Shown here piece by piece: positions 1,624 through 24,326 of a stretch of 64,000 nucleotides of DNA. Numbering within the stretch: the stretch's first letter is position 1; every line of letters starts with the position of its first letter. The translations under genes and the position numbers were made by a program. The stretch covers positions 16,616,001-16,680,000 of the forward strand of contig JBHGNT010000009.1 in assembly GCA_043228905.1 (NCBI GenBank). Direction: 5' to 3'. Under the pieces are notes generated by a model. The model had not been told where the DNA came from. It saw only the letters and a list, made by a program, of their open reading frames with translations, and searched no databases. Origin of the DNA: Azolla caroliniana. Lineage: Eukaryota; Plantae; Polypodiophyta.

Positions 1624-1994
1624 TGTCGTGAAGACTTTCGGCCAGAGGCGAAAACCGGGAAACATTGGCTACATCGGCGGGGTGCAGCACGTGTGTTCAC
1701 CCTTGTACATTTAGTGTGAATAACGAGGGCGCCTTTATGGCGCCGAAGAGTAGTCAAGTCGGGACAGACGATCCCATGTAAGTCGGGATTTATCCCACAT
1801 TGTAACACATCCCTCTCCTTGTTCTATAAAAGGAAGGGAGCGCCCTTTGTGAAAGGGTTGCCCATTTTTCGTTAGAGGGTATATCGTTAGATTTAGGGTT
1901 AGTTATTCTTCTTCTTCTTCTTCTTCTTCTTCTCCCCTTCGTGTTCGCTTAGGGTTGGCTTCAGCTCGTCTCCTGCGCAAGACCCCGCTTGGCG
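1624..1994 (+). repeat. 3' LTR of element O, left part (interrupted by element A)
   Basis: Starts TGTCGTGAAG right after PPT gtgggggcgga, as B's LTRs do; TATAAAAGG near 1826; (CTT)n tract. Confidence 0.7.
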
Positions 1995-2432
1995 TGTTAA
2001 CTCTTAGGGCCGGACAATGGCCTAACATAGGGTGTCTACGGAAGACACTTCACCAAAGGGGTGTTACGGCAACAGGATTAGACTCAACGATTAATCTGAC
2101 TTAATTAAGTTACTTAGCAAGATCGTCCTTAATATTCACACGCGTAAGATATAACAATGAATGCAGAACGGCAATTAACACAAAGAGATAACAACACTAA
2201 GCTTTATTACTTAGCCGCTGTTCATTACATTGTATCCGGGCCTTTAAATAGGTTCCCGGTCTGTATTACAAAACGGTGCCATCCGCACCTGTTCGGGATC
2301 GGTCCGGATCCGGAACGGCATACCGATTCCGGTCCGTCCGTCCACACTCATAGCTTACCTACAACCATTCCTACTAATTAAATGACTCCCCGTTTCACAC
2401 TCTGGACTCCTTTGTCGGCCGGGCCGGTAACA
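1995..2432 (-). repeat. 3' LTR of element A (438 bp)
   Basis: Near-identical to 23883-24321; the minus strand has TATTTAAA followed by AATAAA. Confidence 0.93.
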
Positions 2433-2434
2433 CA

Positions 2435-2451
2435 TGGCACGCCCGTGGGAC
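2435..2451 (+). promoter_or_regulatory. Second, inverted PBS-like site TGGCACGCCCGTGGGAC (tRNA-Arg(UCU)-like) occupying the PPT position of element A
   Basis: 2 nt from the LTR end; one base short of the known Tat-type PBS TGGCACGCCC(A/G)GTGGGAC; no purine tract present. Confidence 0.65.
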
Positions 2452-2486
2452 AGTACCTTGTACGTCGAATCCACATCCGACCCTTG

Positions 2487-5264
2487 CTATTCCTCGTCCA
2501 AAATATCCAGAATGCTTTGTTCGAGAGTCTCCAATAGTTCATCTGGAATTGGTTGTTGTTGTTGTTGTGGTTGTTGTTGTTGCTCTGTTGATGGCAGCTG
2601 CGACGGGTCCGTTGGTGGCGGCTGCGGCTGCTCCTCCGTTTGTTGCTCTGACACCGGCGTCTCCGTCGTTGCTCCCTCCGTCGTAGTGGTCTCCGGTTGA
2701 CTGGTTCCGGGCTGGCCCTCGGCCAGCGACGGTTCCTCATCACTAAGGTTAACCGTTGCCGCTTCTCGTGCTTTTTCTTCCCGAACCCGGGACCGCTCGT
2801 AGCTTTCAAACTGGATTTGAGCGTCCAGCCTATCATTGTCTAGCTGAGCTACGAGTTGCCGGACCTGCGCTAGCTATTCATCCGCCAGGACTTGGAAGTC
2901 ATCGGCCAAGTCGTCGGAAGTCAACGTGTAACAATCATCTCCTTCCTTCCGCCGGTTTGCCACATCTGCCCGTAGTAATTGGAGTTCCGCCGCGTTTTGT
3001 GCCCACTTTGTCCACCATCTTACGGAGCTTTCGTCAATCAAGCGTTTTGTCTTATTCAACCATGCCCAGAGGATGCACTGAATCCGGCCCGTTCCCAACT
3101 ACGATTTGGTCTCCGCAGCTTGTCGTTCCTCCTTCAATTGCTTGATGATTTTGACGTTGTCTTCCGCCTGCTCCTTGTAATGCGTCAATTGCCTTTGATA
3201 TTTGCTTTGTAATTTCTGCAATACCGTTGACGCTCTCTCCTTTTCTTCCTGCTGCTGCCTCTGGAGCTCCATCCGGACCTTCTCCGCCTCGTCCAACCGT
3301 CTTGTATTTTCCGCACGTTCGTCGGCGATCACCGTTGCGGCCCGATCAACTTCCTGCTGGAGCTCAGCCATCCGTTCCTTATGCTCCGTTTCCAGCCGTT
3401 TGTAGTCCCGGTGCAGGTGCTCAAAATCATCTGTCTTTTGCTTGAGCCGTGCGTTGATCTGTCGACGGGCCCAGTCCTCGCGGTTCTTCTGCTGGCGGAG
3501 CTCTTCCTTTAGCCGTTCAATTTTCGTTTCCGCCGTCTTCCGCAGCTTGTCCTTTTCCTGTAGCACTTTGTCTTTTTCCTCCCTTAGCCGGTCGTACGCT
3601 TGATGGCCTTTCCGGAGGCTCTCCTCTGCCCGGCGGAGGTTCTCAGCAGTCTTCTTTAATTCGGCTTTGGCCGCTGTCTTCAATTCCCGTTCCCGGCTCC
3701 TTAGCGCTTCTTGTGCGGCAAGTTCATCTCTCAATTCCGCAAGCTCCTGGGCTTGCGCCACATCTCTCTCTGGAACGGTTTCCGTTGCCAGGGTCTTATT
3801 GGTATGTACAGGTTGATCTATTTCTTTATTCTGTACACTTACCGGAGTCACCGGTGATTGGATCTGTGTTGCCGTTAAGGCCATTTTGGCCATCTCTGTC
3901 GTGACCTAATCCAAGTCTCTTTCAAGGCACCGAATTCTGGACCGGGCCGTCTCTAGTTTTTCGGTTGTGACGAGCAACCGTTCACTTTGCGCTCTTTCTT
4001 CCGCCTCAATATACCCCACTGCTCCGGCAATCTATTCGCCTATCCACCAGAGCCACAGGCTACCGGTGCCTTGTTGTTGCGTTTGCTCGGAGGTTTGACG
4101 GATGGGCTCGCTTGTAGATGGGTGGTCCCGCCTGATTGCGCCGAGTTGCAATTCCGTTTCTGCTCGTGGACCACCCTGCTGTCCTGGTTCCCCTTGCGCT
4201 TCTTCTTGGTTGGCCGAGGGAGGCTGCATTGACCTTTCCGGCTCTAGCGGGATGGGACTTGCCGGTGTTGCCGGTGATGCAGGGGCTTCTGATTCCGGTG
4301 CCATGCGCACCGGTTCCGGTTCTTCCCTTGGCGTGGGAGTCTCAGTATGGGGAGCTGGTGTTCCCTCCGTCTGAGGGTTCGAACGTTTCCTGGCTGCCTC
4401 AACGGTCCTTGCCGACGACCGTCGCTTGAGGTGCTCCGTAGGCTCCTCCTCTATTTCCTCTTCTTGAGTCCCGGCATTGAGTTTTGCCGCCAAGGGGTCT
4501 GCTTCTCTATTCACCGGTCCGCGGAGTGTAACCTTTACGGGCCGTGCCGGTGGTTCCTCCTGCGCATCCGTTGGCCGCTTCCAGCTGGCGCTCTCCTTTC
4601 CCGCCTGTTCTGCGTCCGCCGCCTTCCCCTTAGTGGCCTTAGAGGCCAATAGTTGTTGTCTTTTGGAAGCCGTCATTGGGGTGCCGTCCGCCACTCTTCC
4701 TCTCTTCTTGGGTTGGACGGGTTGGACGGGTGGCACAAGCAAGGTGAGCCACTGCGTTACGGCGTGCCATATCCTTCGTCCGTCTCGGCCTTCTTTGCCG
4801 TCTTTGCCTCTGACGATCTCGATCTCCGCACACAACCCGTCTGCAATCAATACCGGCCAATCCACCTTGATCCCTTCATAGGTGGCGATGATCATTCCTG
4901 CCCGGTTCTGCGGCATGACAGGGGGTCTAGGGTACACATGGCCGTATTCGTGGAGCACACGGGCAATCTCGCGGAACAACATATCTCCGCCGCCCTGTGT
5001 CCAGTAGCCCTTGCTGGCTAGGGAGTACTCACCAAAATACCTGATGAGCTGCTCCGAGGTCGGATTGTCAATCGTGAGTATGCCTCCCTCCGGAAGGCCT
5101 ATTAACGCTCAAATCGCCTCCGCCGTTATGACCTCTGTGTTGATTTCTTTGATCACCTTGTCGGCTTCTTTGTGTGGCGGTACCTCCATAATCATCAAGA
5201 AGCCCTCGAGCCCATGTTGCTTTAGCCAGGCCTTGGCGGCTTCCAACAGCATTTGCGGGTCCAT
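2487..5264 (-). pseudogene. Extra 3' ORF of element A, 925 codons, coiled-coil/low-complexity protein, 5 in-frame stops
   Basis: ORF-track segments 5109-5507, 4032-4982, 3099-3893 and 2874-3098 share one frame that continues to ...QQQPIPDELLETLEQSILDILDEE* at 2487. Stops at 5109, 4032, 3906, 3099, 2874; no net frameshift. Confidence 0.8.
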
Positions 5265-5439
5265 GTCTATGTCGAGGTCGGCTTGTGGTGGCGAGGTTGG
5301 CTGGTGAGGAGAGTGAGAGTGAGAGAGAGAGAGTTCAGAAGGCGGGGGTTCTCTATGTGTAGGTTCTCGTCTGATGATCTTGCAGCGCCTTGGTGCTTTT
5401 GTGCTCCTAGGTTCGCGAAAGTAGAGGGTTTCCACACGC

Positions 5440-6079
5440 TGTCGTGAAGAAAACCGTCCACAAGCGGAATCGGTGCACCGGAGCGTAGGAACCAGCTCTT
5501 CATGCACGTGCGCCTTATGTTGTACATAGGAGATCCTAGGCAGGCAGATTTGGTAGGTGGGGAAGTAAAGGGGAAACGGCTCCTTCCTTGCCTATAAAAG
5601 GAGGGAGACGAGGAGGAGGAAGGGATCGCGGAGAGTTGAGGACGAAGTGCTGTCGGTTTGCGTGCGAAGGCTTCTCTCTCTCTCTCTGGTTCGCAAACTC
5701 CATAGCTTCCTTCTGTGCAGGTTTCGGGAGGCTTGCGCTACTCTGAGGAATGCCCGAGTGCTTCCGGCAGCACCTCCAACCTGTTCCTGTCTTTCTGTGC
5801 GTTTACGAACAGGTATCGGCAACTGTTCGCCGGCCTGTTCGGTTGTAACCGACTTCGTGTTTTGTTGTCTTCGTGTTCTTGTTGTTTGTCTTTGTCAATA
5901 CATACATACATTCGTGTCTTTCTCTGTCGCTGTCCCACTTGCGTCTTTGCGTCGAAGGGCCGTGTCCCTGTGGATCTACGCTCGCACGTAGAGGGATTCT
6001 TCCCCTCCTCTCTTGCTCTTTGGTACAGGACCCCCGAGGTCCTGCCTCATTCCACGCATCCGCGAGGAATACCTCGACA
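5440..6079 (+). repeat. 5' LTR of element B
   Basis: Direct repeat of 17576-18215; TATAAAAGG near 5593. Confidence 0.95.
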
Positions 6080-6083
6080 TATT

Positions 6084-6101
6084 TGGTGAACCCGACGTGA
6101 A
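6084..6101 (+). promoter_or_regulatory. PBS of element B, complementary to tRNA-Trp
   Basis: TGGTGAACCCGACGTGAA is the 18-nt complement of the recalled plant tRNA-Trp(CCA) 3' end. Confidence 0.85.
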
Positions 6102-6123
6102 GGAGGCGGCAGAAGAGCAGAAG

Positions 6124-7287
6124 ATGAAAGGGTCGGATCTTGCGGAGGCCATGGCTTCGGCCGTGGATCGGATATTGAGCGCACGCGAGGGCTTCGGCGC
6201 CCTCGACAGAGCCATTGAGGCGGTCGTCGGTACGATCGGCCGGTTCAGCGGAAAGGATGCCACAAAGTATTTGGCGTCCTACGGGGCAGAAATGCTGATG
6301 CGGGACATTCCGGAAGAGAGGCGTCTTGCCGGGTTTCCTCGAGTGGCGATGCCGAGCATCCATGTGGAGGTGCTCGAGGTGCGGGCGGAGAGCCGTACCT
6401 GGGAGGAGTTCGAATGCCGACTCCTGGAAAAATACGGGTTGGACGACGCGCTCCGGCTTTTGAAACGAGACTTCATGGAATGGGTGGAGTCCCCCGGCAA
6501 GAGAAGAAACGCGTCGGCACTCCTCCGGGAGTTCGAAGAACGCTTTGCGCGCCTTTCGGCGCTTGACCGAACCGTTCTGGATACGAGCCGGGTCCTACTG
6601 TTCGTCAAGTCGGTGGACGAGCGGGACCGGATCAAGTCGGCTCCTTGCTGGAAACCGAAGACGGGCTGACGACCGACTGGGCTACGGTTAAGAGGGTCTG
6701 TGGCCGTTTCGACAAACGGCGAGAATGGGCTGATAACGGGGCGACCGGTGCGGGGTCTGTCATAGCAAGGAGGCTTGAACCGACACCGCAAGGGCGAAGG
6801 GAACAAACCCGGGAATGGCTCGAAACCGGTCCGGCTTCGACCGGCATGGTCAGTGGCTCGTCCGGAGGAGCAGTGCTGGAGAAGTTGACGTGGGCGATAA
6901 AGGATTTCCAGATCGCCCAGACTCGAAGGGAAGGCGGCGAACCGGCTCGTGACCGACGGCCGGCAGTAGGGAACAGGTGCATGTGGTGCGACGAGGTCGG
7001 CCACATCCGGAAGGACTGCGGCGATTTCGCTGAAGCGTTGAGGAACCGGGTGGTGTACCTGTGGGAAGGTCGGGTGCACGCCGGCGACACCAGAAGGGCC
7101 CTAAACCGAAATGACGAACGAGGAGGTATGAAGAGACTGATGGAGGAGGCAGCGGCCCGACACGTGGAGGCTATCCACTACTCGGCGTCGGCCGGCATTC
7201 GGGTCGGGGGCAGCGAGGCCCGAAAGGAGGGCAAAGACGGATTCTGGTCGGCGATGCTGGAAGGTCTTGCCGGCGCACGGTTGAAGA
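6124..7287 (+). pseudogene. Element B gag, 5' part (frameshift near 6640; cut by C)
   Basis: ORFs 6013-6669 and 6645-7322; zinc knuckle CMWCDEVGHIRKDC. Confidence 0.85.
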
Positions 7288-7730
7288 TGTCAGGAACTCT
7301 ATTAAGGCAGAGAAGGAATTAGTACTAAAAGAAGGATTAGTACTATTGTCGGGGAATAGTACTAAGACAGAGAAGGATTAGTACTATGAGAGGTGTCGAA
7401 CTTTGAGAGAAGGAATGGGTGAGTGAGAGAGAGAGAATGATGATGCGAAAGGTATATGTATTATATGAAGGAAGATATACAACAGTAGTTAGAAGGCTTA
7501 AGACTGGCGTTGAACCGATTTGGTTCGAACTAATGCCTTGCGCCTCCTTTTATAGTGTCCTCAGGAATACTCCTGAAGTTTCTAGAATGTTCCAGAGAAA
7601 TCTGGAATATACATCAATTTCCCAATAAAACCTAAATGAAAATAATATCCTTCAAATTACAATTTATAACCTAATGGTAAAGTCTCGACCCGTGTAACAA
7701 AAGGTTATGGGTTCGAGTCTAGTTATGACA
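7288..7730 (-). repeat. 3' LTR of element C
   Basis: TGTCA...TGACA, 443 bp. Confidence 0.96.
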
Positions 7731-10700
7731 CTATCCCCCCTTTAAAACGACGAGTTCCACGAGTCGTTTTGGATTGAGGACCCGGTTTCTCGGGATATCG
7801 TTGATGGAAGTCTTCTAGAAGAGCACGAGCATTGGTCACATTCTCGATCGGTTCCCAAGTACGCTCGCTGGGACTATATCCTAGCCAATCGACTAGATAG
7901 TAGAGCTTGTTGCGAACAATCTTGGAATCGAGGATGGCAGCGACCTCATACTCAGGTCCATCTTCGAGCTCGATAGGAGGTGGTGGTTGTATAGTACGTC
8001 CTGGGATAGTGCTCTCGTGATAGGGTTCGAGGAGAGAACTATGAAACACCGGATGTATCCGAAGTTGCGGAGGTAGCTCGAGACGAAAAGCGACATCATT
8101 AATCTTCCCGATAATACGGAAAGGACCTAATCGCCGATAATCCAACTTCTCACATGGGCGAGTAGTCTTGATGTGTCGTCGTAGCAGCCACACCCGATCT
8201 CCAATGTTAAAACTGGATGGAAGTCGATGACGATCTGCGTAGTCCTTGTGTGATTGTTGAGCTTGCTGGAGTTGAGTAGATAAATCCGCTTGTATCTTGC
8301 GTAACCGCTCCAAACGATCCTCCGCGCAAGGATTTGTGGACACTTCTGGGGTTTCAAGGACACACCACCGGGGATGATATCCTGTATAAGCGTAGAATGG
8401 CGTGACTTTAGTCGATGCGTGGATAGCGTTATTATAGGCAAATTCGGCGAACTGAAGAATATCTGCCCAGTCATTCTGATGATAGTTGAGAAAGCACCGC
8501 AGATACTGCTCCAGTGTTTGATTTGTTCGTTCAGCTTGACCGTCGGTTTGTGGGTGGTAGCCGGAGGAGAGGTGACAAGTGACCTTCAGCATTTTAAAAA
8601 GGTGCTTCCAGAATTTTGACACAAACTGAGGTCCACGATCGCTAATGATATTATCAGGGAGTCCATGATGCCGACATACTTCCCGCATGACAATTTCGGC
8701 GGTGTCTTCACTAGATATTTCTTTAGTACATGGTAAGAAATGAGCCATCTTTGTATATCGATCCACCACTGTGAGAATCGCACTGAATCCCTTGGAGACT
8801 GGAAGATCTGTAATGAAGTCAAGAGCAATGGATTGCCATGGCTTGCTTGGAATTGGTAATGGTTCTAATAAACCATATGGATGATGTCTTGGCATTTTCG
8901 CTCTGCAGCATGTATCGCAAGTCCGAACAAAATCTTCGACAAATTGTCGCATACGGGGCCACCAGAATGATCGTTGTACTAAATCTAATGTTTTAGTACT
9001 ACCAAAATGTCCTGCTGTATATGTGTCATGGCAGTTTTGTACTACTCGAAGGCGGCAAGAACCATTAGGAACATACAAAAGTTCTTTAAAGAAGAGTAAT
9101 CCATCACAGTATTTGAATTGCCGATAATCCGTACCTGGTGATTGTGATTGTGAACATGACGCTCGAGAGGGGTCAATTTGTGCTAGTATAGCTTGGGCGA
9201 AAGCGTCAGTCTTCAAGTCCTCACGTATAGTATTGGTAATGTCGGAATCCACGGGCATGTCAAAGACCTGTGCTGCTTGCAGTCGTGCTGGACCCAAGAT
9301 TACTTGCTTCTGGTTATCGAAAGTTGGCTCACTAGGACGTGGTGTTAGATACGAACGCCGTGATAATGCATCTGCCTTCCCTTGGTGCTTCCCCGGACGA
9401 TATGTAATTTTGAAGTCGAAGCGTGTGAGGAAGTGGGCCCACCGAGCTTGACGTCGATTCAGTACACGAGCATCTTGAAAGTAGGCAAGGTTCTTGTGGT
9501 CACTGAATACAGTGACCTGATGAGGAGATCCCTCCAGGAAATGCCTCCATTGCATAAAAGAATCAACTATTGCTAATAGCTCTTTATCATGAATTTCGTA
9601 GTTGATTTCGGCGGCGTCAAACTTACGGGAGTGGAAAGCCACAGGATGTAGCTTCTCGTCGTTACCCTGTTGTGACAGAATGCTCCCCAATGCGAAATCC
9701 GATGCGTCAGCTTCGATAATGAATGGTTTTTCCGGATCCACATGACCTAAAATTGGAGCTGATGTAAACGCCTTCTTAAGACTCTCGAAAGCCATGTCCG
9801 TCTCTTTAGACCAAAGGAATGATTGTCCCTTCCTGGTGAGCTGTGTGAGAGGCAGCACAATTTTTGAGTAATTTTGTATGAACTTCCGGTAAAAATTTGC
9901 AAAGCCTAGGAAGCATTGCACATCCCGCACCGAACGCGGAGTGTGCCATTCTATCACCGTTTTGACCTTGGCTGGGTCCATAGATATGCCTTCTGAGGAG
10001 ATGACATAGCCGAGAAACTCCACTTGGTTGCACCCGAAACTACATTTCTCTAACTTTGCATACAGACCATGTTCTCGAAGTCGTTTTAGTACTAATAGTA
10101 CATGAGAATCATGTTCTTCTTGGGTCTTTGAATAAACCAGTAGATCATCCAAATAGATGATCAAAAAATCATCCAAGAGATCTCGAAATATATCATTCGC
10201 CATGTGCTGGAAGACTGCTGGCGCATTAGTGAGTCCGAACGGCATGACCGTATACTCGAAGTGCCCATATCTGGTGCGAAACGCGGTCTTCCATTCATCT
10301 CCTGGTCGGATCCGTACGAGGTTATAGGCTCCTCGTAAGTCGATCTTCGTGAAGAACCTGGCACCGTTGATCCGTTCTAAAAGACTTGAGATAAGGGGAA
10401 GAGCATACCTATTTCTTACTGTGACCTTATTCAAGCCACGGTAATCTACAACGAGTCGAAGCGAGCCATCTTTTTTCTTGACGAAGAAAATGGGTGCGCC
10501 GGCTGGAGATTTCGAATGCCGAATGAAACCATTCTCCAAATTCTCCTCTATATAGGCTCGAAGGACTTCTAGCTCGGTTGGTGACAAATTGTAGATCGGC
10601 CCCCATGGCGGCTCTTTTCCCGGTTGTAAGTCGATGGCGCAATCGTACGGCCGATGATGAGGAAGTGTGTTGGCTTGTACTTTATCGAACACATCAGCAT

Positions 10701-11280
10701 ACTGACGATACTTCTCGGGAAGTTGAACGGTGGACTCCTCTTTGGTGGTACTGGAGGGTTGTACTGATATTGCGAAGAGAAACATTTCCTCCTTGCGCCC
10801 TTCCTCACGCAACTGACGTAGCGAAATGGTTGCAACCTTCTGGGTAGATCCTTGGGTTTGTCGCAACCAGATTTCCCTTGTCCTCCAATCTATGTCTGGG
10901 TTATGTAACTCGAACCATGGTAATCCTAAAACTATGGGATGTTCTGGAATACTAATAATATTAAATGATACTACACATGTTAAGTTATCTAGGACAATAT
11001 TAACGGGTTCCGACTCTTCTATGATATTACCAGAAGCAATGGGACGACCATCAATGACTACTACTGAGGCTGGACATGGGAGCTTTCTGAGAGATATCTG
11101 ATGAGCTCGGGCAAAATTCCTATCCATGAAGCAAGAATTAGCTCCGGAATCTAGAAGGGCTAAGGTATGTACTGGAGGGGTACTTTTAGTACTAACTGCT
11201 ACTTGGGCTACGAACACATCACTAACTTGCTTAGAGGGAATGGAACCACTAATGGGCTGCACAGATCTAGGGCTGTCCAA
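7723..11280 (-). CDS. Element C Pol (PR-RT-RH-IN-chromodomain)
   Basis: Intact 1185 aa; LLDSGA, YLDD, EADAS, GPF, EYEVAAILDSK...YLVDWLGY. Confidence 0.96.
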   Translation of the reverse strand: MDSPRSVQPISGSIPSKQVSDVFVAQVAVSTKSTPPVHTLALLDSGANSCFMDRNFARAHQISLRKLPCPASVVVIDGRPIASGNIIEESEPVNIVLDNLTCVVSFNIISIPEHPIVLGLPWFELHNPDIDWRTREIWLRQTQGSTQKVATISLRQLREEGRKEEMFLFAISVQPSSTTKEESTVQLPEKYRQYADVFDKVQANTLPHHRPYDCAIDLQPGKEPPWGPIYNLSPTELEVLRAYIEENLENGFIRHSKSPAGAPIFFVKKKDGSLRLVVDYRGLNKVTVRNRYALPLISSLLERINGARFFTKIDLRGAYNLVRIRPGDEWKTAFRTRYGHFEYTVMPFGLTNAPAVFQHMANDIFRDLLDDFLIIYLDDLLVYSKTQEEHDSHVLLVLKRLREHGLYAKLEKCSFGCNQVEFLGYVISSEGISMDPAKVKTVIEWHTPRSVRDVQCFLGFANFYRKFIQNYSKIVLPLTQLTRKGQSFLWSKETDMAFESLKKAFTSAPILGHVDPEKPFIIEADASDFALGSILSQQGNDEKLHPVAFHSRKFDAAEINYEIHDKELLAIVDSFMQWRHFLEGSPHQVTVFSDHKNLAYFQDARVLNRRQARWAHFLTRFDFKITYRPGKHQGKADALSRRSYLTPRPSEPTFDNQKQVILGPARLQAAQVFDMPVDSDITNTIREDLKTDAFAQAILAQIDPSRASCSQSQSPGTDYRQFKYCDGLLFFKELLYVPNGSCRLRVVQNCHDTYTAGHFGSTKTLDLVQRSFWWPRMRQFVEDFVRTCDTCCRAKMPRHHPYGLLEPLPIPSKPWQSIALDFITDLPVSKGFSAILTVVDRYTKMAHFLPCTKEISSEDTAEIVMREVCRHHGLPDNIISDRGPQFVSKFWKHLFKMLKVTCHLSSGYHPQTDGQAERTNQTLEQYLRCFLNYHQNDWADILQFAEFAYNNAIHASTKVTPFYAYTGYHPRWCVLETPEVSTNPCAEDRLERLRKIQADLSTQLQQAQQSHKDYADRHRLPSSFNIGDRVWLLRRHIKTTRPCEKLDYRRLGPFRIIGKINDVAFRLELPPQLRIHPVFHSSLLEPYHESTIPGRTIQPPPPIELEDGPEYEVAAILDSKIVRNKLYYLVDWLGYSPSERTWEPIENVTNARALLEDFHQRYPEKPGPQSKTTRGTRRFKGGIVS

Positions 11281-11306
11281 CCAAACGGCTCCTATTTTGG
11301 CTGGAC

Positions 11307-12473
11307 TTAGTCGTTTAACTCTTCTTCTAATTGGCTAAGGACATCAAATTTGTTTGCGAGATTCGGACTATTAGTACTATTAGGACTATGACTATGAGGA
11401 CTATCAGAGATTCCTACTGAAATAGACTCGGGTTTAGTATAGTCAGAACTAACAACGACTTGGTTTACCTGCCTTCTTGGTCTATGGGGACAGTTTATCG
11501 CGATATGCCCTGGTCCACCGCAATAAAGGCATAATCGGTTTGTTCGGCGTCGTTGCTTTTCCTCCTCCGATAGCGGCCCACGACGACGTGTAGTGTCAAT
11601 TTCCATTGGAGTTGGAGTACTTACTGGAGGCGCATTATGTGACTCCCTTTGAAAAGGTTTTGCTACCACTGAGGCATAGGTAGGCTCGGATCTTGCCCTC
11701 GGCATCTGAAATTGTCGTTCCGAACGTCGCTCGAAGAGGCGGTTGTCACATCTGACCGCTCGACTGATTGCTTCTGTTAATGATTTTGGCTCTTCAGGGA
11801 AAGTCAAGAGTAAATCCTTGACATCGTTGCGTAGACCATAGCGGAACTGCTCCATCAATGCTTGATCATCCCAGGGGATATCGGCGGCGAGTAGGCGGAA
11901 ATCTGCAGCATATGCGGAGGCTGGACGGTCACCTTGGCGTAATCGCCGGATTTTGTTGATTGCAGTCCTTATGCTGTCAGTATCTCCAAAACATGCTTTA
12001 AACTCATTTATGAATTCTTCAAAATTATTTAGTACTGGAGATTCCTTTTCTAGTAGCGGAGCGAACCATGCTAATGCTGAGCCATTTAACAACGTGCCTA
12101 CTAAACCCACTCGTGATGCATCGGTGGGATATCGGGACGGATGCATTTGAATAACTAACCGTACCTGGTTAAGAAACCCTCTAAACTGCGATCGCGTTCC
12201 ATCAAACTTCGTGGGAAGGCCAATCTTGGGTTCTTTATGAATCCCTTGTGCTCCGTGCCCTTGTTGTTGCATTGCTACGATGGTTGCTTCGAGTTGTTGC
12301 ACGCGTAACGCAAGTTCCCCATGCTGTTGTTGCGTTTGCTGCTTTTCTAAGGAAATTTGCTGAAGATCCCCCAACAAGCGTTGATTTTCTTGTTCCAAAG
12401 CATGAAACTTCTCTTTCAAGCATTGAAATTCCGAGAAAACGGATTGATACTCTTCAGCGCTAACGGTGGCCAT
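11307..12473 (-). CDS. Element C Gag (coiled coil, capsid, CCHC)
   Basis: Intact 388 aa; PTKFDGTRS, PMEID, CLYCGGPGHIAINC. Confidence 0.95.
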   Translation of the reverse strand: MATVSAEEYQSVFSEFQCLKEKFHALEQENQRLLGDLQQISLEKQQTQQQHGELALRVQQLEATIVAMQQQGHGAQGIHKEPKIGLPTKFDGTRSQFRGFLNQVRLVIQMHPSRYPTDASRVGLVGTLLNGSALAWFAPLLEKESPVLNNFEEFINEFKACFGDTDSIRTAINKIRRLRQGDRPASAYAADFRLLAADIPWDDQALMEQFRYGLRNDVKDLLLTFPEEPKSLTEAISRAVRCDNRLFERRSERQFQMPRARSEPTYASVVAKPFQRESHNAPPVSTPTPMEIDTTRRRGPLSEEEKQRRRTNRLCLYCGGPGHIAINCPHRPRRQVNQVVVSSDYTKPESISVGISDSPHSHSPNSTNSPNLANKFDVLSQLEEELND

Positions 12474-12576
12474 GGGATGAAGGAAAAGGAAAATAAGAGA
12501 CTAATAGGAAAGGAGGGAGACAGAAGGAAGAGGGAGAGAAAAGACCAGACAGGCACCGAGGGAAATCGGTTCAAAC

Positions 12577-12710
12577 TGTCAGGAACTCTATTAAGGCAGA
12601 GAAGGAATTAGTACTAAAAGAAGGATTAGTACTATTGTCGGGGAATAGTACTAAGACAGAGAAGGATTAGTACTATGAGAGGTGTCGAACTTTGAGAGAA
12701 GGAATGGGTG

Positions 12711-12751
<41 letters not shown>

Positions 12752-13041
12752 TGATGCGAAAGGTATATGTATTATATGAAGGAAGATATACAACAGTAGT
12801 TAGAAGGCTTAAGACTGGCGTTGAACCGATTTGGTTCGAACTAATGCCTTGCGCCTCCTTTTATAGTGTCCTCAGGAATACTCCTGAAGTTTCTAGAATG
12901 TTCCAGAGAAATCTGGAATATACATCAATTTCCCAATAAAACCTAAATGAAAATAATATCCTTCAAATTACAATTTATAACCTAATGGTAAAGTCTCGAC
13001 CCGTGTAACAAAAGGTTATGGGTTCGAGTCTAGTTATGACA
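12577..13041 (-). repeat. 5' LTR of element C
   Basis: 465 bp; (GA)n tract 22 bp longer than in the 3' LTR. Confidence 0.96.
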
Positions 13042-13046
13042 GAAGA

Positions 13047-14008
13047 AGGATGAAACGGACCGCGTTGAGAGACGGGTACGGGAAATAACCGGGTGGAGCG
13101 ATCAGGTAGAGGAGAAGACGGGCTTCGTGGAAGCCGCCTACCGGATCTACGAGGCTCTGGTAGAAGACAAACGAGTGGGGAAAGTCGGAGAGGCCGGGCC
13201 TTCACAACGGTACGAGACCCGATTCGGGCAACGACGGAACGATGCCGGCGGGCCCAGCGCGCAAGACAACCCCAGGAAGGGCGGATACCGACTGGGGACG
13301 GAAATAGAAAGGACCACGGACCTACGAAAGGTCCTAGAGGAACGGATCCTCGACAGCAAGGTGGAGCTGTCATTGCGGGAGGTGCTAGGGATCGCCAAGA
13401 AGTAGTTCGACGACTCCATTGTAGACTTGGTGAAACGGAAGAGGCTGTCGACGGAGACGGATCCGGAAAGACCGGTAGAGGTGCGGACGACGCACATCAA
13501 CGACTCGGCGCTGGCAGATGAGTGGGCGGAGAGCCACTATTCGAGGCCACACTGGGCCCGAGCAACCACGGAGACCCCCGTAAAGATCGGAGATGTTCAG
13601 GAACCGGTGGTGGCGTTGGTGGACCACGGTTCGGAAATAAACCTGATGTCCATGGACTTCTATAAGAAGGGGAAGTGGCCGATCAACACCAAGCACGGGT
13701 GGAAGATACGGGCGGCGACGCACGCCGCCGAGGAACTGCACGGGGCCTGCCCGAACGTGCGAGTCAAGATCGGCGACGTCGAGATTGACCAGCACTTCTT
13801 CGTACAGGAGACGTCCTCGCACCCGGTCATATTAGGCGAACCATACATCACGGCGGCACGAATGGAGACCAAGGTGCTGGACAACGGTTCGGCCTACGCG
13901 AGGGTCAAAAGCCAGGACGGGCGCCGTTCGGTCCAATTTCTGACCGTGAGACCGAACCACGAGCGGAACCGCGAATCCCTCGGTGGCGAGAACCGGGAGG
14001 ATTTTTAG
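13047..14008 (+). pseudogene. Element B gag 3' part plus aspartic protease
   Basis: ORFs 13127-13405 and 13427-14008; VALVDHGSEINLM ... VILGEPY. Confidence 0.85.
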
Positions 14009-17000
14009 AGAGGGCTGCCAAGGCGTGGGGCCGAGACAGTCCGGACACTCGGGAAAGACCCCACAGCTGTACGATAGAACCAAAACCGAAGAAACCTTGT
14101 ACGATAGGTAGAAAATTCTGCTTCTCCGGCAACGGAGGATGTATGATAGTCGGCATCGTTGGCCGAGAGAGGGCAAGGGCGGAGGAGCGACTTCGAACGT
14201 GCGGAGTTCTCGGCCCGGACGAGGAAATCAGCGGGGCCGTGGAGGCGGTCTCCTTCGACGACACCTTGGGGATGCTAAGGAAGGTAGCCGGAGAAGACCT
14301 TAACGAAGACCGGTCGATACCGGTATGTTCCGAAGAGATGTACGAAGTCATCGCGAACTTCAGTCGGGGGCTCGGGTCGGATCGGACGGCCCGAGTTAGC
14401 ACGAAGTACAAGACTGTGGACCGGAAGGTAAGGCCAGTCGCGGCACCCTTGCCGGAGGGCAGCGAGTCCCGAATCAGAGGGGTAGCGTCGGACCCCAGTT
14501 TACGAGATCCGGCCTGCATAGGACACACCTTTACCGACGGGACGCTCCGGGAGCTCAAAATCGGTGGGGGCAGGTTCCTACTGCCGGCGGAGGAAGACCG
14601 GTTTCGGAGGATGCTTGGAAGGCACGGGAAAGCCTTCGCATTCTCACCGGAAGAGATCGGGTGCGTAGACCCGACGATCGTGGAGCCGATGGTGATATTC
14701 ACGGTACCGCATGTGCTGTGGAATCTCAAGCCGATTCCGGTACCAAGAGCTCACATCCCGAAGTTGATGGAGCTATTAAGGCAGAAAGTAGATATGGGCA
14801 TTCTTGAACCATCGAGTGCCCCATACTCGAACCGATGGTTTACCGTACCGAAGAAAAACGGAACATTGCGCTTCATTCAGGACCTGCAGCCGGTCAACAG
14901 AGTGACCATTCGGAACGCAGGAATAGGACCAACCATAGACGAGTTCGCAGAGGCCTTCGCCGGAAGGTTGATTTACTCGGTCGGTGATCTGTACTCAGGG
15001 TACGACCAGTTCCAGCTAGCCGTGGAAAGCAGAGACATTACGACGATGCGAACTCCCCTCGGCCTAGTGCGAATGTGTACCCTGCCACAAGGAGGGACCA
15101 ACTCGGTAGCCCACATGGTGAATGCAATGAACAAGGTGCTGAGGGATTGCATCCCAGACATCACCATGCCATTTCTAGACGACATCCCGATCAAGGGGTG
15201 CCCGGTGGAGGAGAAGGACGAGACAGTCGGGCCGGACAGATGCCGGCGATTCGTGGCGACACACATCGACGACTGCAAGAAGGTGCTACAAAGGCTAGAG
15301 GATGCGAGGCTCACCTTCTCCGGGGAGAAATCGGCCTTCGGGCAATCGGAAATCCTGGTGGTCGGGCACCTATGTGGACCCTATGGTCGGAAGCCGTCTC
15401 CGGCAAAGGTAGAAGCCATCTCCGCGATGAAGACCGATTGTAGCTCGGCTACGGAAGTTCAGAGGTTCCTGGGGGCATGCGCATTCTACCACATATGGAT
15501 CCCGCATTACGCCCACGTTGCGGAGCCGCTATACGGGTTGCTGAAGAAAGGGCAAAAATTCGAGTGGCGAGACGAGCACACGGAGTCGGTCCGGAAGCTG
15601 AAGGAAGCTCTTGCGGCAGCACCGGCGCTCCAGAAGGTTGTCTACGAGAAAGGTACCCCAGTATACATAACGGTGGATACGAGCCCGACCGGGATCGGAT
15701 GGGTCGTCAACCAAGAAGACAAGGACGGCATTTGGTTCCCGATCCGATTCGGCGCGAAGGTCCTCAGTGAACGACAGCGAGGGTACGCCCAAGTTAAACG
15801 CGAACTCTGGGGTATCGTTTCGGCAGTAAAGGCCGACAAAGACTACTTGATCGGGACAGAAGTGGTTATCGAGACGGATTGCCTGCCGATTCTCGGCATG
15901 GTTTCTAGATGCGCGACACCAGACCTGGTGATGCTCCGGTGGATAGCGTACATCAAGTCCCTGGACCCGGAAATACGGCACATTTCCGGAAAGGACAACG
16001 CCATGGCCGACATGCTTTCGAGGGCGAGGTTTGATGACGAGGGCGGCATGGTTTCGGAGGACGAAGAAGTCGGCGTAGACTTCTTCGAGGCAGCGTACGT
16101 GACGACCGATGGGACGAGCACTCCGGCACTTAACGACTTCGACGAGAGCAAGTACGACGGCGAGTGGCTCCAGATCGGTGGATTTTTTAGGACAATGACG
16201 CCGGATGTGTCATGGACGAAGGACGAGGCCAACCGGATCCGGAAGAAAGCATACCGATTCTTTCTCCGGAACGGATACTTATGGAAGCACCCGAAGAAGA
16301 GGAACGGCGTCCCGCTCCGGGTGGTGGCGATGAAGGAAGAACAGGAGGAGCTGCTGACGGCCTACCACGACAGCCCTTGGGCTGGACACCGTGGAACGTG
16401 GGCCACGTTCGAGAAAATAAAGGGGAAGTACTGGTGGCCGGGATTGTACCGTGACGTGCATCGGTTTGTGACAACTTGCGAGAGCTGTCAGATGCACTCC
16501 ATAGTCCGGCATCGGGACGAGCTTCACCCTACGTACCCTTTGACCGTCCACTTCAAATGGATGGTAGATCTGGTGACGATGCCGATGGGCGTCGGACAGA
16601 TGCGGTATCTGGTCCTGGCTCGGGAAGATCTGACGAACCAGGTGGAAGGCCGGGCCCTTCAGAACAAAACGACCGCGGTCGTATGTCGGTTCCTAATCGA
16701 GGACGTGATATGCCGGTACGGGTGCGTCGGGAAGATCGTGGCTGATCGCGGGGAGTTGGACGCCGAAGAGGCCGAGGAGTTGTTCGACCGGCTAGGAGTT
16801 AAGCTCTCGCTTACCACTGCATACAATCCGGAGGCGAATGGGAAGGTGGAGCGCGGACACGGACCGATCGTCAAGGCGTTAGTTCGGGCATGTGGAGGTC
16901 ATGTCGGGAACTGGCCGCGGCTGTTGCCTTACGCGTTGTGGGTGGACCGAACTACGCACAGTTCGGTAACCGGATTCATGCCGGCAGAACTCATGTTTGG

Positions 17001-17502
17001 GCAGAAGCCGGTCATGCCGATGGAACGAACGATCTCCTCGTGGGCAACCGTGGACTGGAGAGACGAGATGAGCCGGGAGGAACTGCTGGCGGCGCGGATA
17101 CGACAGCTCGAGCGAAGACCGGAGGACGTGGAGCAGGCTGCGGAAAAGCTTCGGGAAGCAAGGATGAGGAACAAAGCCCAGTTCGACCGGACGCACCGGC
17201 TCCGACCAAAGAAGATCGAGGAAAGCGACTGGGTGCTAGTCTACGACAGCAGCCTTGACAACCAGCACCGAGCGACACGGAAGTTCGCAAGAAGGTGGTT
17301 CGGGCCTTACGTGGTACAAAGCGCCAATGACAACGGGACGTACCATCTGGCGGAACTCGACGGTACGAGAATGGCGATACCGGTAGCTGGGAAGCGGATC
17401 AAAGCGTTCAAGAAGCGTCACGACGACGAGCCGGATCCGGTTGACTTGGACCGCGACGATGAACGATCCGAAACCGAGGAAGAACCGACGGGCGGGGAAT
17501 GA
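13999..17502 (+). CDS. Element B pol (RT, RNase H, integrase), -1 frame relative to gag-PR
   Basis: 1119-aa ORF from 14143, open upstream to the slippery site at 13999; FLDD, VDTS, ETDC, HHCC zinc finger and DDE core. Confidence 0.93.
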   Translation, partial: GFLERAAKAWGRDSPDTRERPHSCTIEPKPKKPCTIGRKFCFSGNGGCMIVGIVGRERARAEERLRTCGVLGPDEEISGAVEAVSFDDTLGMLRKVAGEDLNEDRSIPVCSEEMYEVIANFSRGLGSDRTARVSTKYKTVDRKVRPVAAPLPEGSESRIRGVASDPSLRDPACIGHTFTDGTLRELKIGGGRFLLPAEEDRFRRMLGRHGKAFAFSPEEIGCVDPTIVEPMVIFTVPHVLWNLKPIPVPRAHIPKLMELLRQKVDMGILEPSSAPYSNRWFTVPKKNGTLRFIQDLQPVNRVTIRNAGIGPTIDEFAEAFAGRLIYSVGDLYSGYDQFQLAVESRDITTMRTPLGLVRMCTLPQGGTNSVAHMVNAMNKVLRDCIPDITMPFLDDIPIKGCPVEEKDETVGPDRCRRFVATHIDDCKKVLQRLEDARLTFSGEKSAFGQSEILVVGHLCGPYGRKPSPAKVEAISAMKTDCSSATEVQRFLGACAFYHIWIPHYAHVAEPLYGLLKKGQKFEWRDEHTESVRKLKEALAAAPALQKVVYEKGTPVYITVDTSPTGIGWVVNQEDKDGIWFPIRFGAKVLSERQRGYAQVKRELWGIVSAVKADKDYLIGTEVVIETDCLPILGMVSRCATPDLVMLRWIAYIKSLDPEIRHISGKDNAMADMLSRARFDDEGGMVSEDEEVGVDFFEAAYVTTDGTSTPALNDFDESKYDGEWLQIGGFFRTMTPDVSWTKDEANRIRKKAYRFFLRNGYLWKHPKKRNGVPLRVVAMKEEQEELLTAYHDSPWAGHRGTWATFEKIKGKYWWPGLYRDVHRFVTTCESCQMHSIVRHRDELHPTYPLTVHFKWMVDLVTMPMGVGQMRYLVLAREDLTNQVEGRALQNKTTAVVCRFLIEDVICRYGCVGKIVADRGELDAEEAEELFDRLGVKLSLTTAYNPEANGKVERGHGPIVKALVRACGGHVGNWPRLLPYALWVDRTTHSSVTGFMPAELMFGQKPVMPMERTISSWATVDWRDEMSREELLAARIRQLERRPEDVEQAAEKLREARMRNKAQFDRTHRLRPKKIEESDWVLVYDSSLDNQHRATRKFARRWFGPYVVQSANDNGTYHLAELDGTRMAIPVAGKRIKAFKKRHDDEPDPVDLDRDDERSETEEEPTGGE

Positions 17503-17575
17503 AGGCTGGACCGGTTTCCTCCATCCCAACACAATTTGGCACATGCCGGTGGATGCGCGGTCATGTGGGGGCGGA

Positions 17576-18215
17576 TGTCGTGAAGAAAACCGTCCACAAG
17601 CGGAATCGGTGCACCAGAGCGTAGGAACCGGCTCTTCATGCACGTGCGCCTTATGTTGTACATAGGAGATCCTAGGTAGGCAGATTCGGTAGGTGGGGAA
17701 GTAAAGGGGAAATGGCTCCTTCCTTGCCTATAAAAGGAGGGAGACGAGGAGGAGGAAGGGATCGCGGAGAGTCGAGGACGGAGTGTTGTCGGTTTGCGTG
17801 CGAAGGCTTCTCTCTCTCTCTCTGGTTCGCAAACTCCATAGCTTCCTTCTGTGCAGGTTTCGGGAGGCTCGCGCTGCTCTGAGGAATGCCCGAGTGCTTC
17901 CGGCATCACCTCCAACCTACTCCTTCCTTTCTGTGCGTTTACGAACAGGTATCGGCATCTGTTCGCCGGCATGTTCGGTTGTAACCGACTTCGTGTTTTG
18001 TTGTCTTCGTGTTCTTGTTGTTTGTCTTTGTCAATACATACATACATTCGTGTCTTTCTGTGTCACTGTCCCACTTGCATCTTTGCGTCGAAGGGCCGTG
18101 TCCCTGTGGATCTACGCTCGCACGTAGAGGGATTCTTCCCCTCCTCTCTTGCTCTTTGGTACAGGACCCCCGAGGTCCCGCCTCATTCCACGCATCCGCG
18201 AGGAATACCTCGACA
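17576..18215 (+). repeat. 3' LTR of element B
   Basis: Direct repeat of 5440-6079, preceded by PPT. Confidence 0.95.
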
Positions 18216-18465: not shown

Positions 18466-21400
18466 TTACCGGCTCTCCGTCTCTGCTGTCTTGGTGGTTG
18501 CCGTTTCCACACCGGTGTCGGTCCTTTGCTCAAATGGATTTTTGGGCATCGGTCCTCTATATGGCTTCAATCGGAATCCGTTGACCCATTTGCCTAGCAC
18601 TTCGCCGGCAAGTGTCCCTAACTGGTAGGACCCATTATACTCACGTATCAGCCAATACGAACCGGTCCATCTAAACCGTAATTTACCCAGCATCTTGCCC
18701 ATCCGGGTCTGAAATACTAACACCGGTTTGCCGATTGCAAACATTTTTTCGTTTCCTTTCCTGTGTTGGTCGACAAATGCTTTCCGTCGTCGTTGTTCCA
18801 ATCCTAAGTGCAGGATGCTTGCAGTCATTGTTCCTCGAGTTCACACAGCGTTGTTAACCGTATTGCCTCCGACTCCTTCTCGTTCAGCCGTTCCCGTAGC
18901 TGGATCCATAAGTTGGGTACTTGGAATTCCACCGGCATTACCGCCTCTAGTCCGAACGTTAACCGGAACGGTGTTGTTCGGATCCTCGTTTTATATGTCG
19001 TCCGGTATGCCCAAAGCGCGCTATGTACCTTGGTATCCCAATCCGTTCGGTTTTCGTTGACGATCTTCCGGAGGATATTCTGGAGCGTTTTGTTAGTCGA
19101 TTCCGCTAACCCGTTTGCTTGCGGATAGTATGGTGTGCTCCGTTTATGGGCAACGGCATAGAATATCGTCAGGCTTTCAACTACTTGGCCGAGAAAGTGC
19201 CCCCCTTGGTCGCTTATTAATTCGATTGGGCATCCGTAACGGCACCAAATGTACTCGTATAGAAATTTCGTCGTTGACGCAACGGTGTTGTCTCTTAAGG
19301 CTTTGGCCTCCACCCATTTCGTGCAGTAATCCGTCGCGACGATGACGTACCGATTACCCATTCTCATTGCCGGTGGTTTGAACGGTCCAACAAAGTCCAG
19401 CCCCCACTTCTGGAATGGCTCGAGTGGTAGTACCGGCTGGTGAGGCATACGAGCCTGCTCCGTTGGCTGGCCCATTCGCTGGCATAGGTCACATTCTTTT
19501 GCATACCGTACCGCATCTCTTAATGTCGTTGGCCATCATAGGCCACTTTGCCATATTTTCCTGGCCGTCCCATCTCCTGCATAGTGACCTCCGGCAACTC
19601 TGCAGTGGGCTTCCCTCAGTATCAGGTCCTTTTCATTGCTGCGCACAGCCCGTCTCCATAAAGTGTGTCTTGCAGTAAGCAGAAATGTCGGCTTTGCACC
19701 GCCAGGCATTTCCGTTCGTCTCCATATGCCGTCCGCGCCCTTGTGGTAAAGTGTGTCTTGCAGTAAGCTGAAATGTCGGCTTTGCACCGCCAGGCATTTT
19801 CGTTCGTCCCGGTTCATCTCTTCCGGAGGCAGTCCTGTGCTCAGAAACTAGTGCATGTTTGTGAGCCACTTGTCTTCCTGTGCCACTGTCTCATCTACTG
19901 TTGTTTCCGTAGTGACTCAAAACAGCTCCGCATCCGGAAACTCATCCGCTACTCCGTCACCCGTCTCTTCGAACCCTAAACCCTAAACCCTATCCTCGGT
20001 GTCAGTCCACTGGAATGGTGTCCGATGTACAGCGGCATGCAACGGTGTAGCCAGGTCGGCCAAGTATCGGAGCATCTGGTTGTGCCACCGGATCTGGCCT
20101 AAGAACCGGCTTAATGCCTTTGCCGTTGCCGGCGCCGGTGCTTCTAATATGGCTTTCACTTTGTCCGGGTCGACTGCAATACCTTCTTGGCTCACAATAT
20201 GTCCTAATAAAGTTCCACTGGACACGCCAAATACACACTTTGCCAGATTCAAGCTTAGCCGGTATGCTCTACACTTTTCTAGACAAAGACGGAGGTGCTA
20301 AAAATGGTCCTCCGCCCGACTATAGATGGCGAAATCGTCAAGGAAAACCTTCATAAAAGCCGGGATATATTCACCAAAGATTTCCATGATGATTCGTTGA
20401 AATGTTGTTGGTGCCGTTTTGAGTCCGAACATCATCACCACGGCCACAAACACCCCCCATTCGGTGACGAAAGCCGTTTTCTCTTGGTCGTCGGGGTGCA
20501 TCCGGATCTGATTATACCCGCTGAATCCGTCTAGAAAGCTATAGACCTCATGGCCGGCGACGGCATCCAACACTCCATCTGTGAACGGGAGTGGAAACGC
20601 ATCTGTTACCGTAGCCGCATTGAGTTTCCGGTAGTCCACACAAACTCGAATTTTTCCGTTCTTCTTCGGTACGACTACGATCGGGCTCAGCCATGTCGCT
20701 TTCTTTACCAGATGGATAAAGCCAACTCTTAGCAGTTTGTCAATTTCCTCCTTGACTTTGGCGGCATAATTGGGATTCATTTGGTACCGTCTTTGTGCCA
20801 CTGGTTTTGCATCCTTGCTCAAGTGAACCTGATGCTGGTATAACTAAGGGTCGAGTCCTCGCATGTCTTCGTATGACCAGGCGAACACGTCGCGAAATTC
20901 CGTGAGAAGTGTGATCATCGCCGTTTTGTCTTCGGTCTTCATCTCCTTGGCGATGTGCACCGGTTTTGCTTCGTTCGTGGTCCCTAGGTTCACCTCTTCA
21001 AGTTGCGACGCTTTTACGCGCTATGAAACGGCCATTTCCCGTTCCAACGCTTCCTACGCTTGCCGTAACTCCTGGATTGCGTCTTTATCTGGTTCTGCTT
21101 CAGCCTCTTCCGGTTGCGGTAAGTATGGTGCTACTGCTTCGGCAATGTCAATTTCGAAGAGGGGTATGATCTTCGGGTTTTCCTGCAAGTACTGAGCTTC
21201 TTCTTCGTCAGCTAACCCTTCTAGCATGTTGACGCACTCTGCGTACAATGGTGTACATTCCTTGCCAGTGCTCGTCCTTGGCTGTGTTGGTACCCGTACC
21301 TTGGCTTTTCCTCGCCGGAAGGTAATTATATTTTTCCTCCAATTCTGTTTGATATGTGCCGTTTTCAACCATGGCCGCCCCAGCAATAGCGGGTATGCGC

Positions 21401-23829: not shown

Positions 23830-23865
23830 CCATCCGTGCCGTCGTTCGATGCAAAAACAAGAATC

Positions 23866-23875
23866 GTGGTCGCCA
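23866..23875 (-). promoter_or_regulatory. PBS of element A, TGGCGACCAC (tRNA-Arg(UCG)-like)
   Basis: 7 nt after the 5' LTR; complementary to the recalled tRNA-Arg 3' end GUGGUCGCCA. Confidence 0.65.
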
Positions 23876-23882
23876 AAAATTG

Positions 23883-24321: not shown

Positions 24322-24326
24322 CGGCG

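Follow-up and report, generated by a model that had tools for sequence, protein, structure and literature searches.

Priming of the plus strand from a polypurine tract (PPT) is treated as common to retroviruses and LTR retrotransposons, and the known variety concerns the minus strand. In the accessible parts of six sources (PMC6317226, PMC1635307, PMC5371799, PMC10886601, PMC11358816, PMC13233458), the minus strand is primed in various ways, including bipartite or 3' primer-binding sites (PBS), self-priming and half-tRNAs, and the plus strand from a PPT. The clade of element A, the Ty3/gypsy retrotransposon described here, shares with Ty3 of S. cerevisiae the gag-PR-RT-RH-IN order, LTRs bounded by TG...CA, a 5-bp target duplication and a short minus-strand tRNA PBS. 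Unlike Ty3, it lacks a PPT, carries a tRNA 3'-end module instead and has changed residues in the RT thumb.

The plant non-chromovirus OTA elements (Athila, Tat/Ogre/Retand; Neumann et al. 2019, PMC6317226), as far as the accessible sections describe them, resemble A in the absence of a chromodomain, the 5-bp target-site duplication (TSD) and the extra 3' ORF, and likewise in a net length of about 9.5 kb and a T-rich spacer, as in locus L002. The Arg-type PBS given there for Ogre, TatIII and Retand is shared with A on the Arg label that we assume for A. Tat differs in that the A clade has no archaeal RNase H, and Athila in that the PBS of A is not of the Asp, Asn or Ala type. In its accessible part, the tables of this survey cover only 5' PBS types, and a 3' tRNA module is not mentioned.

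With the second PBS of Ty3 and of Drosophila gypsy (PMC5371799; PMC1635307), A has in common a tRNA-related site near the 3' end and, as would hold for A, T-arm contacts that aid primer binding. According to the available sections, however, those sites, on the genomic RNA, are complementary to the tRNA and function in priming the minus strand or in RNA bridging, in elements that also have a PPT. In the A clade, the RNA carries the tRNA's own sequence, the polarity is opposite and the PPT is gone; the arrangement is not a bipartite PBS. Helenus TRIMs (Kojima 2024, PMC10886601) are also LTR elements with tRNA-derived sequence, but in the accessible description this part lies in the LTR as a promoter, and the elements are non-coding and keep both PBS and PPT, unlike A. 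A literature search covering titles and the starts of abstracts, with most subscription papers and Repbase outside its scope, yielded no description of a tRNA end replacing a PPT, in agreement with an earlier note on this DNA, which knew of none. Two-strand tRNA priming in LTR retrotransposons is thus apparently undescribed.

Element A and its clade

The window, the whole 64-kb stretch of Azolla caroliniana DNA analysed here, holds element A on the minus strand at 1995-24321 (Table 1), with a net length of 9551 bp when the nested element C is left out. The minus strand encodes gag, protease, RT and integrase frames and a 3' ORF. These frames agree with the LTR TATA-like and AATAAA signals on the orientation given in the earlier note, and the PBS TGGCGACCAC that it had placed behind the 5' LTR (23875-23866) is present. 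The direct LTRs, bounded by TG...CA, are 96.8% identical (1995-2432 vs 23883-24321), and the flanking target duplication (TGGCG / CGGCG) matches at 4 of 5 positions. Element A is a dead copy, with stops in its frames and RNase H deleted near 19980; its gene order is otherwise gag-PR-RT-RH-IN, which is complete in the related loci L013, L018 and L001. At the deletion joint (19972-19992) lie three plant telomere-type units (AACCCTA), resembling filler at a repaired break. ARAGORN detected no tRNA gene within the 64-kb window. Pfam matches of the 3' ORF to VP30 were weak and all under the cut-off, and the likeness between the 3' ORFs of L014 and L001 was marginal (E 0.012).

Table 1. Features of element A in the window, listed by position
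Feature	Position	Strand	Remarks
Target-site duplication, left copy TGGCG	1990..1994	.	Right copy CGGCG, 24322-24326
3' LTR	1995..2432	-	TATA-like box 2241-2252, AATAAA 2203-2208, both on the minus strand
2-nt spacer, CCA to LTR TG	2433..2434	-	2 nt in 6 of 7 related loci showing the spacer; 4 nt in L028
Copy of tRNA-Arg(UCU) positions 59-76 including CCA, at PPT position	2435..2451	-	One base short, at the T-stem/acceptor junction
Inserted 4-bp hairpin, arms 2463-2460 and 2456-2453	2452..2464	-	Between tRNA positions 58 and 59; two pairs changed on both sides
Copy of tRNA positions 49-58, T-stem 5' strand and T-loop	2465..2474	-	Outer edge of the conserved island
3' extra ORF, sense, coiled-coil rich, stop-broken	2487..5330	-	No Pfam family
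Nested element C, with chromovirus B inside (7278-13041); neither is part of A	5440..18215	+	
RT and integrase, stop-broken, thumb motif FLGQIRWH	18466..21050	-	RNase H deletion near 19980
gag (zinc knuckle) and protease region, stop-broken	21054..23830	-	
5' PBS TGGCGACCAC	23866..23875	-	Separated from the LTR by a 7-nt T-rich spacer, 23876-23882
5' LTR	23883..24321	-	

Element A is itself hosted by the LTR of a C-like element (1626-1994 and 24322-24680), giving nesting in three levels (host, A, C, B). Element C (5440-18215) has a 4-bp ACGC target duplication of the NCGN type and a PBS that begins TGGTGAACCC, presumably of the Trp type. This TSD and PBS are Phygy hallmarks, and the RT of C forms a long branch in the quick tree described below. 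Phygy is described as a moss-specific clade in the accessible part of the survey (PMC6317226). In the LTR of A, the TATA-like box is nearly palindromic, a TATA box being readable from both strands. Two more short intra-LTR islands, at 2285-2346 and about 23910-23950, are common to families in all four runs analysed below, as judged from loose contig ends at the island edges; CCGGA-type repeats abound in the one at 2285-2346, which lies upstream of the TATA box.

In a quick RT tree (74 rows, SH-aLRT support only, midpoint root), A fell into a 29-row clade at SH-aLRT 99, together with sister loci, L001, L051, unnamed proteins and four Adiantum proteins. Outside it lay L088, L002 and rows from Riccia, Selaginella, other Adiantum and Asteraceae; the five Asteraceae proteins, which may be Athila, fell well outside. 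By this placement, the likely host is a seed-free plant, whether a fern or some other. The RT thumb of the clade reads FLGxxxWH, whereas outside rows mostly have YY or FY. In an RT-RH alignment to Ty3 RT 4OL8 (E 2.6e-75), the residues of the clade at Ty3 N297/Y298/Y299/R300 are R or K, W, H and S/N/G/T/A. The accessible part of PMC5371799 reports that N297, Y298 and R300 of Ty3 contact the primer and the RNA template and that their mutation lowers RNase H activity. The RNase H catalytic residues are intact in sister elements. Because they share one origin, the thumb motif and the loss of the PPT count as a single correlated event and are no proof of function.

Archaeal RNase H was absent from L013, L018, L001, P0019 and P0032, in which it gave no Pfam match and had no room between RH and IN. 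Tat elements (TatI-III, Ogre, Retand) carry this domain in addition, as stated in the available part of PMC6317226, and element A is therefore not a Tat element. In the earlier note, the complement of the motif at the PPT position had been read as a Tat-type PBS; its 2-nt distance from the LTR stands, but the Tat membership of A does not. The layout of Athila (no archaeal RNase H, 5-bp TSD, extra 3' ORF) was found in A, but not its PBS types (tRNA-Asp, Asn, Ala), and the sites of the clade differ from that of L002. Phygy and Selgy, given in the same source with a 4-bp TSD, a Trp or Ala PBS and a short element filled by pol, are excluded by the 5-bp TSD, the PBS type and the 3' ORF. Tatius, a REXdb v4.0 name, occurs in one paper, which gives no definition of it, and is absent from the accessible part of PMC11358816.

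The sequence at the PPT position and its conservation

Where a PPT would precede the 3' LTR, the sense strand of A reads GTCCCACGGGCGTGCCA (2451-2435), followed by 2 nt and the TG of the LTR. The site is, as had been claimed, not purine-rich: its last 15 nt contain 8 purines with a longest run of 3, compared with 10-14 purines of 15 and runs of 5-13 in the PPTs of B, C, the element at 50975/56311 and L088. Normal PPTs elsewhere in the window, also part of that claim, were confirmed for B, C and the 50975/56311 element, with the host element left of A among those checked. A purine-rich stretch 45-100 nt upstream, in the acidic ORF tail, was rejected as a primer, since it would place the module inside the LTR, and purine runs in L001 and L014 were rejected as PPTs, being located within ORFs or the LTR.

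The full module spans 2435-2474 and consists of a 17-mer and a T-arm part, split by 13 nt that form a 4-bp hairpin; positions follow standard tRNA numbering. The motif as first described holds as a 17-mer, but the conserved unit does not end at 2451, the island reaching 2474. A degenerate pattern of the motif, with CCA left out, matched one stretch in viral_contigs (L089), which ARAGORN identified as a tRNA-Arg(TCT) gene ending in CCA. Anticodon and CCA were absent from the search pattern and are the only two independent supports for the tRNA identity; the sequence fit is partly circular because L089, a tRNA of a viral contig and not of the host, was retrieved with the motif itself. On this pattern match and ARAGORN call, the reading of the motif as a tRNA-Arg(UCU) 3' end with CCA, one base short, was upheld, as was its match to tRNA 3' ends, within the bounds of a tRNA taken from a viral contig rather than from the host set. 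Over 324 kb of loci L001-L089, ARAGORN called a tRNA gene only in L089, and Rfam gave no tRNA-family match on 2435-2520, only weak ones to tmRNA (E 0.05) and sX14 (E 5.1).

Relatives of A came from RT-based scans, which provided 8 loci in genome_contigs and, for metagenome_contigs, the best 80 of 510; in viral_contigs, searches with the RT detected none. Among these 8 and best 80 of 510 loci, all eight in-clade loci that reach the junction (L001, L014, L016, L017, L018, L022, L028 and L049) carry the module and none has a PPT, so that the possibility, raised at the outset, of relatives keeping a normal PPT was not borne out. The junction lies downstream of the locus's own pol in L017, L018, L022, L028 and L014, while L016 and L049 have the 3' end directly before an LTR. 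Several of the eight have long open gag-pol frames. Deviations were seen in L014, whose sequence stops within the module, L016, with CTA for CCA, and L028, with a 4-nt spacer and a deleted pol. Paired LTRs are present only in A and L001 (the pair search found none elsewhere), and the LTR start of the others was assigned by homology. In L049:250-990 and L016:300-1020, the 3' ORF tail, module, one LTR, PBS and gag follow serially, as in an LTR-sharing tandem or a collapsed assembly.

Fewer than 300 nt follow the pol match in 62 of the 88 loci, including L016 and L049, which were still counted for their 3' end upstream of an LTR. Among the 26 others, L012, L013, L032 and L077 stop in or near the 3' ORF, L051, which is in the clade, has no recognisable junction, and L054 and L059 are broken fragments. 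L009, L029, L036, L079, L083 and L085, with neither module nor PPT-like site on a partial reading, stand outside the count of eight, as do L078 and L004-L008, which lie outside the clade. A covariance model built from A and seven loci gave no more strong matches over 410 kb, its next ones being the L089 tRNA and the L001 junction.

L001 is a complete element with 1.65-kb LTRs that are 93.5% identical, and its RT is 70% identical to P0005. Of 18 places, 13 agree between L001 and the L089 tRNA end (P 3e-5 for a fixed place), and a hairpin of its own, of 7-8 bp and with a TCGA-containing loop, abuts the 18-mer; L001 has no clear T-arm 5' match, and the module covariance model gave E 0.08 unfiltered. 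Its contig, from a bacterial MAG and probably chimeric, carries bacterial genes beside the element, and the target duplication of the element is imperfect. The neighbouring genes are bacterial and ABC-transporter-like. At L001:8726-16057, one frame of 2444 codons joins pol to a long 3' coiled-coil region; the A-like elements instead have their 3' ORF apart from pol. No further junction was found in the remaining contigs of three MAGs. The one informative outgroup junction, in L088, has a 13-purine PPT. Outside the A-like group, the trait is seen in one element (L001), to be compared with this one outgroup junction. L088:2-7150 has a second aspartic-protease domain after the integrase (residues about 2011-2094).

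Contigs of four runs from four organisms (X1, X3, X16 and X17; 4 of the 22 listed) were compared over 2250-2850. Loose ends lay before 2429 in 31, 37 and 37 contigs (X1, X16, X17) and before 2422 in 8 contigs of X3; behind 2474 they were found in 29, 29 and 30 contigs, and behind 2476 in 12 contigs of X3. The edge at 2474 coincides exactly with the 5' end of the T-stem. Loose ends at both edges, with low agreement there, indicated that many families share only the module island under differing LTRs and ORF tails. Among the variants listed for the four runs, no variant letter fell in 2433-2451. Position 2470 is T/C, with C in 70, 75, 55 and 49 contigs, and the C allele gives the canonical T-arm. 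Contigs spanning the module and the 3' ORF tail were present among the pieces listed for X1, X3 and X16.

Element A is dead and rearranged, with its RNase H deletion and nested insertions, and might for that reason be suspected of having captured a tRNA end, or another element's PBS, once and in this copy. We regard such an accident or chimera as very improbable indeed, given that the module recurs in all eight relatives reaching the junction (from 8 and the best 80 of 510 loci), of which several have gag-pol frames open over a long stretch, that the contigs of X1, X3 and X16 just mentioned bridge it to the 3' ORF tail, and that a shared deletion and a covarying hairpin cannot stem from fresh tRNA copying. 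For the clade, a copying accident as the source of the module is refuted by the run contigs and the module-bearing loci. As judged from these comparisons of sequence, the module has replaced the PPT in a plant Ty3/gypsy clade and is conserved across families and hosts.

The 5' PBS and the proposed plus-strand primer

A PBS beginning with TGG, 2-7 nt past the LTR end, was found in A and 11 loci. It starts with TGGCGACCAC in A, L011, L013, L016 and L049, with TGGCA(C/T)GCC in L017, L018, L058, L021 and L034 and with TGGCGACTCC in L001; none of the variants listed for the four runs fell in 23861-23902. The site of A we take to be tRNA-Arg, and the Arg and Asp labels of the other 5' sites are likewise presumed, only the Arg(TCT) type being tied to the ARAGORN result. 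The 5' PBS varies in tRNA type independently of the module. A symmetric two-tRNA scheme, as first proposed, had to be given up: the 3' site keeps to Arg(UCU) and is long and structured, unlike the short, T-spaced 5' PBS with its varying tRNA type.

Pairing between the 5' PBS and the module amounts to only 1-4 Watson-Crick nt in A, L016 and L049, where the module is therefore no self-primer. The 5' PBS of the five TGGCA(C/T)GCC loci pairs with the module, or with Arg(UCU)-type ends, for 8-11 nt, which lends indirect support to the view that the host has Arg(UCU)-type tRNAs. The available part of PMC5371799 states that the Ty3 PBS is not recopied from the tRNA, so the 5' sites would report on the host tRNA only via selection. 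The same pairing of 8-11 nt would also suit another role of the module, be it tRNA or tRNA-fragment binding, RNA dimerisation, packaging or minus-strand self-priming, with unspecific RNA remnants priming the plus strand; the 3' tRNA site of Drosophila gypsy is, in the accessible account, unused in cDNA synthesis (PMC1635307). We give this explanation little credence, as a primer end must be precise to give exact TG...CA ends and a target duplication, the 2-nt spacing of the CCA is maintained, the PBS of the A subfamily does not pair with the module, and the gypsy/Ty3 3' site is of opposite polarity.

It is established that the plus-strand primer, through its 3' end, fixes the outer boundary of U3 (PMC5371799, accessible part of section 2.2). 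In A and L001, no second copy of the module lies outside the 5' LTR, and the plus-strand primer therefore very probably ends at, or within a few nt of, the CCA of the module. Host tRNA and element RNA read almost alike at the module, and models with either as primer share their geometry. On balance, we favour the reading that a second host tRNA, tRNA-Arg(UCU), anneals to the complement of the module on minus-strand DNA and primes the plus strand. Minus-strand synthesis would start in the usual way, from a first tRNA at the short 5' PBS, and RNase H would clear the 3'-end RNA to leave single-stranded minus DNA. The last 18 nt of tRNA-Arg(UCU) would then pair with this DNA with one base bulged; in A-like families, 10 further T-arm nt would pair, the DNA hairpin being looped out at position 58/59. 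The tRNA modification m1A58 cannot pair. Extension by RT from the CCA would copy first the 2 nt and next the LTR, after which RNase H would remove the tRNA at the RNA-DNA junction and integrase would trim the 2 nt.

The hairpin of the A-like families occurs in four sequence types, each with four Watson-Crick pairs and ending 1 nt before the 17-mer. Two of its pairs are changed on both sides, compared with none in the cis T-stem, although pairing is undercounted in both helices because the alignment misregisters L017 and L018 in the hairpin and four rows in the T-stem. The hairpin covariation amounts to 7 cells, a value reached in 0 of 500 shuffles; given the kinship of the sequences, this figure cannot be read as a probability. 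Tested singly against shuffles, hairpins gave p about 0.05 in 7 of 9 cases, 0.009 in L014 and below 0.0001 in L001. In the cis T-stem, the 3' strand is invariant, A, L017 and L028 have G-to-A departures on the 5' strand, and pairing is still possible in 5 of 8. The three stem departures in A-like families (G53, G51, G67) are all G to A, a change that breaks the cis stem and keeps a G:T wobble with the tRNA. All eight A-like modules have the one-base deletion at the T-stem/acceptor junction; the acceptor 3' strand is conserved, and no cis partner was found for it. T-stem and hairpin fold in cis in most sense RNAs, and in 7 of 9 cases co-folding with a proxy tRNA (RNA parameters) gave a duplex of 27-28 nt from which the hairpin is looped out, L001 co-folding poorly. 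Since deletion and hairpin are common to the families, the module is inherited via element RNA under selection and is not recopied from the tRNA.

Priming by the host tRNA is favoured by the apparent conservation of sequence rather than fold, with 27 nt of identity to one tRNA kept, by two-sided changes that number none in the cis T-stem and two in the hairpin, and by stem departures that would all be wobble-compatible with the tRNA. The insert, moreover, sits where m1A58 would break the duplex, and the T-loop hairpin makes a poor tRNA mimic. Against it stands the fixed deletion in 8 of 8 A-like modules, which costs duplex stability and lacks an explanation; the cis T-stem can form in 5 of 8, G-to-A is a common mutation class, and L001 differs in the upstream part, its hairpin with the TCGA loop being more like a cis T-arm.

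The primer might instead be the element's own RNA, surviving RNase H at the module with the help of hairpin and T-stem and cut after the CCA; the module would then be a tRNA-like substitute for the PPT and no second host tRNA would be involved. Such a remnant would have the same geometry, the deletion would need no excuse, and the folding of T-stem and hairpin in most sense RNAs, the T-stem pairing possible in 5 of 8 and the TCGA loop of L001 would all suit it; RNA primers on DNA templates are normally remnants, according to the accessible part of PMC5371799. We nevertheless consider it unlikely, if well short of negligible, because it leaves unexplained the 27-nt identity to one tRNA, including an acceptor strand without a cis partner; the cis T-stem shows no compensatory change, and G53A is common beside the canonical base (2470 T/C).

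A tRNA could also prime on RNA, if an antisense transcript of the 3' LTR bore the module as an ordinary PBS and the resulting strong-stop DNA of plus polarity jumped to minus DNA. The site makes a textbook PBS when read in plus orientation, with 2-nt spacing and 17 + 10 nt, RTs extend tRNA on RNA templates, and the box at 2241-2252 is TATA-like in both directions. This route would, however, require a second packaged RNA, and no plus-strand ORF or poly(A) signal was identified for the antisense RNA; we judge it improbable.

Implications for Ty3/gypsy replication

We return to the host tRNA as the preferred primer. The clade of A is then likely to prime both DNA strands with tRNA, to go by its sequences. 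The full picture would be of a widespread Ty3/gypsy clade of seed-free plants that lacks a PPT and uses two host tRNAs, one per strand. A structured site on the DNA would receive the tRNA and open its T-arm around m1A58, and the RT thumb would be adapted to extending tRNA on DNA; the clade would be the first LTR lineage with a trans-primed plus strand. To this picture as a whole we assign an even chance. Host tRNA and cis remnant are distinguishable by one base and by the tRNA body.

Annotation pipelines seek tRNA matches only past the 5' LTR, to judge from the accessible parts of the sources, which may explain why the module has gone unremarked, and they could mis-orient elements of the A type. 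The clade offers a natural RT in which to ask how RT and RNase H distinguish primer from template. A successful clade of many families without a PPT would mean that the plus-strand priming step can be rewired.
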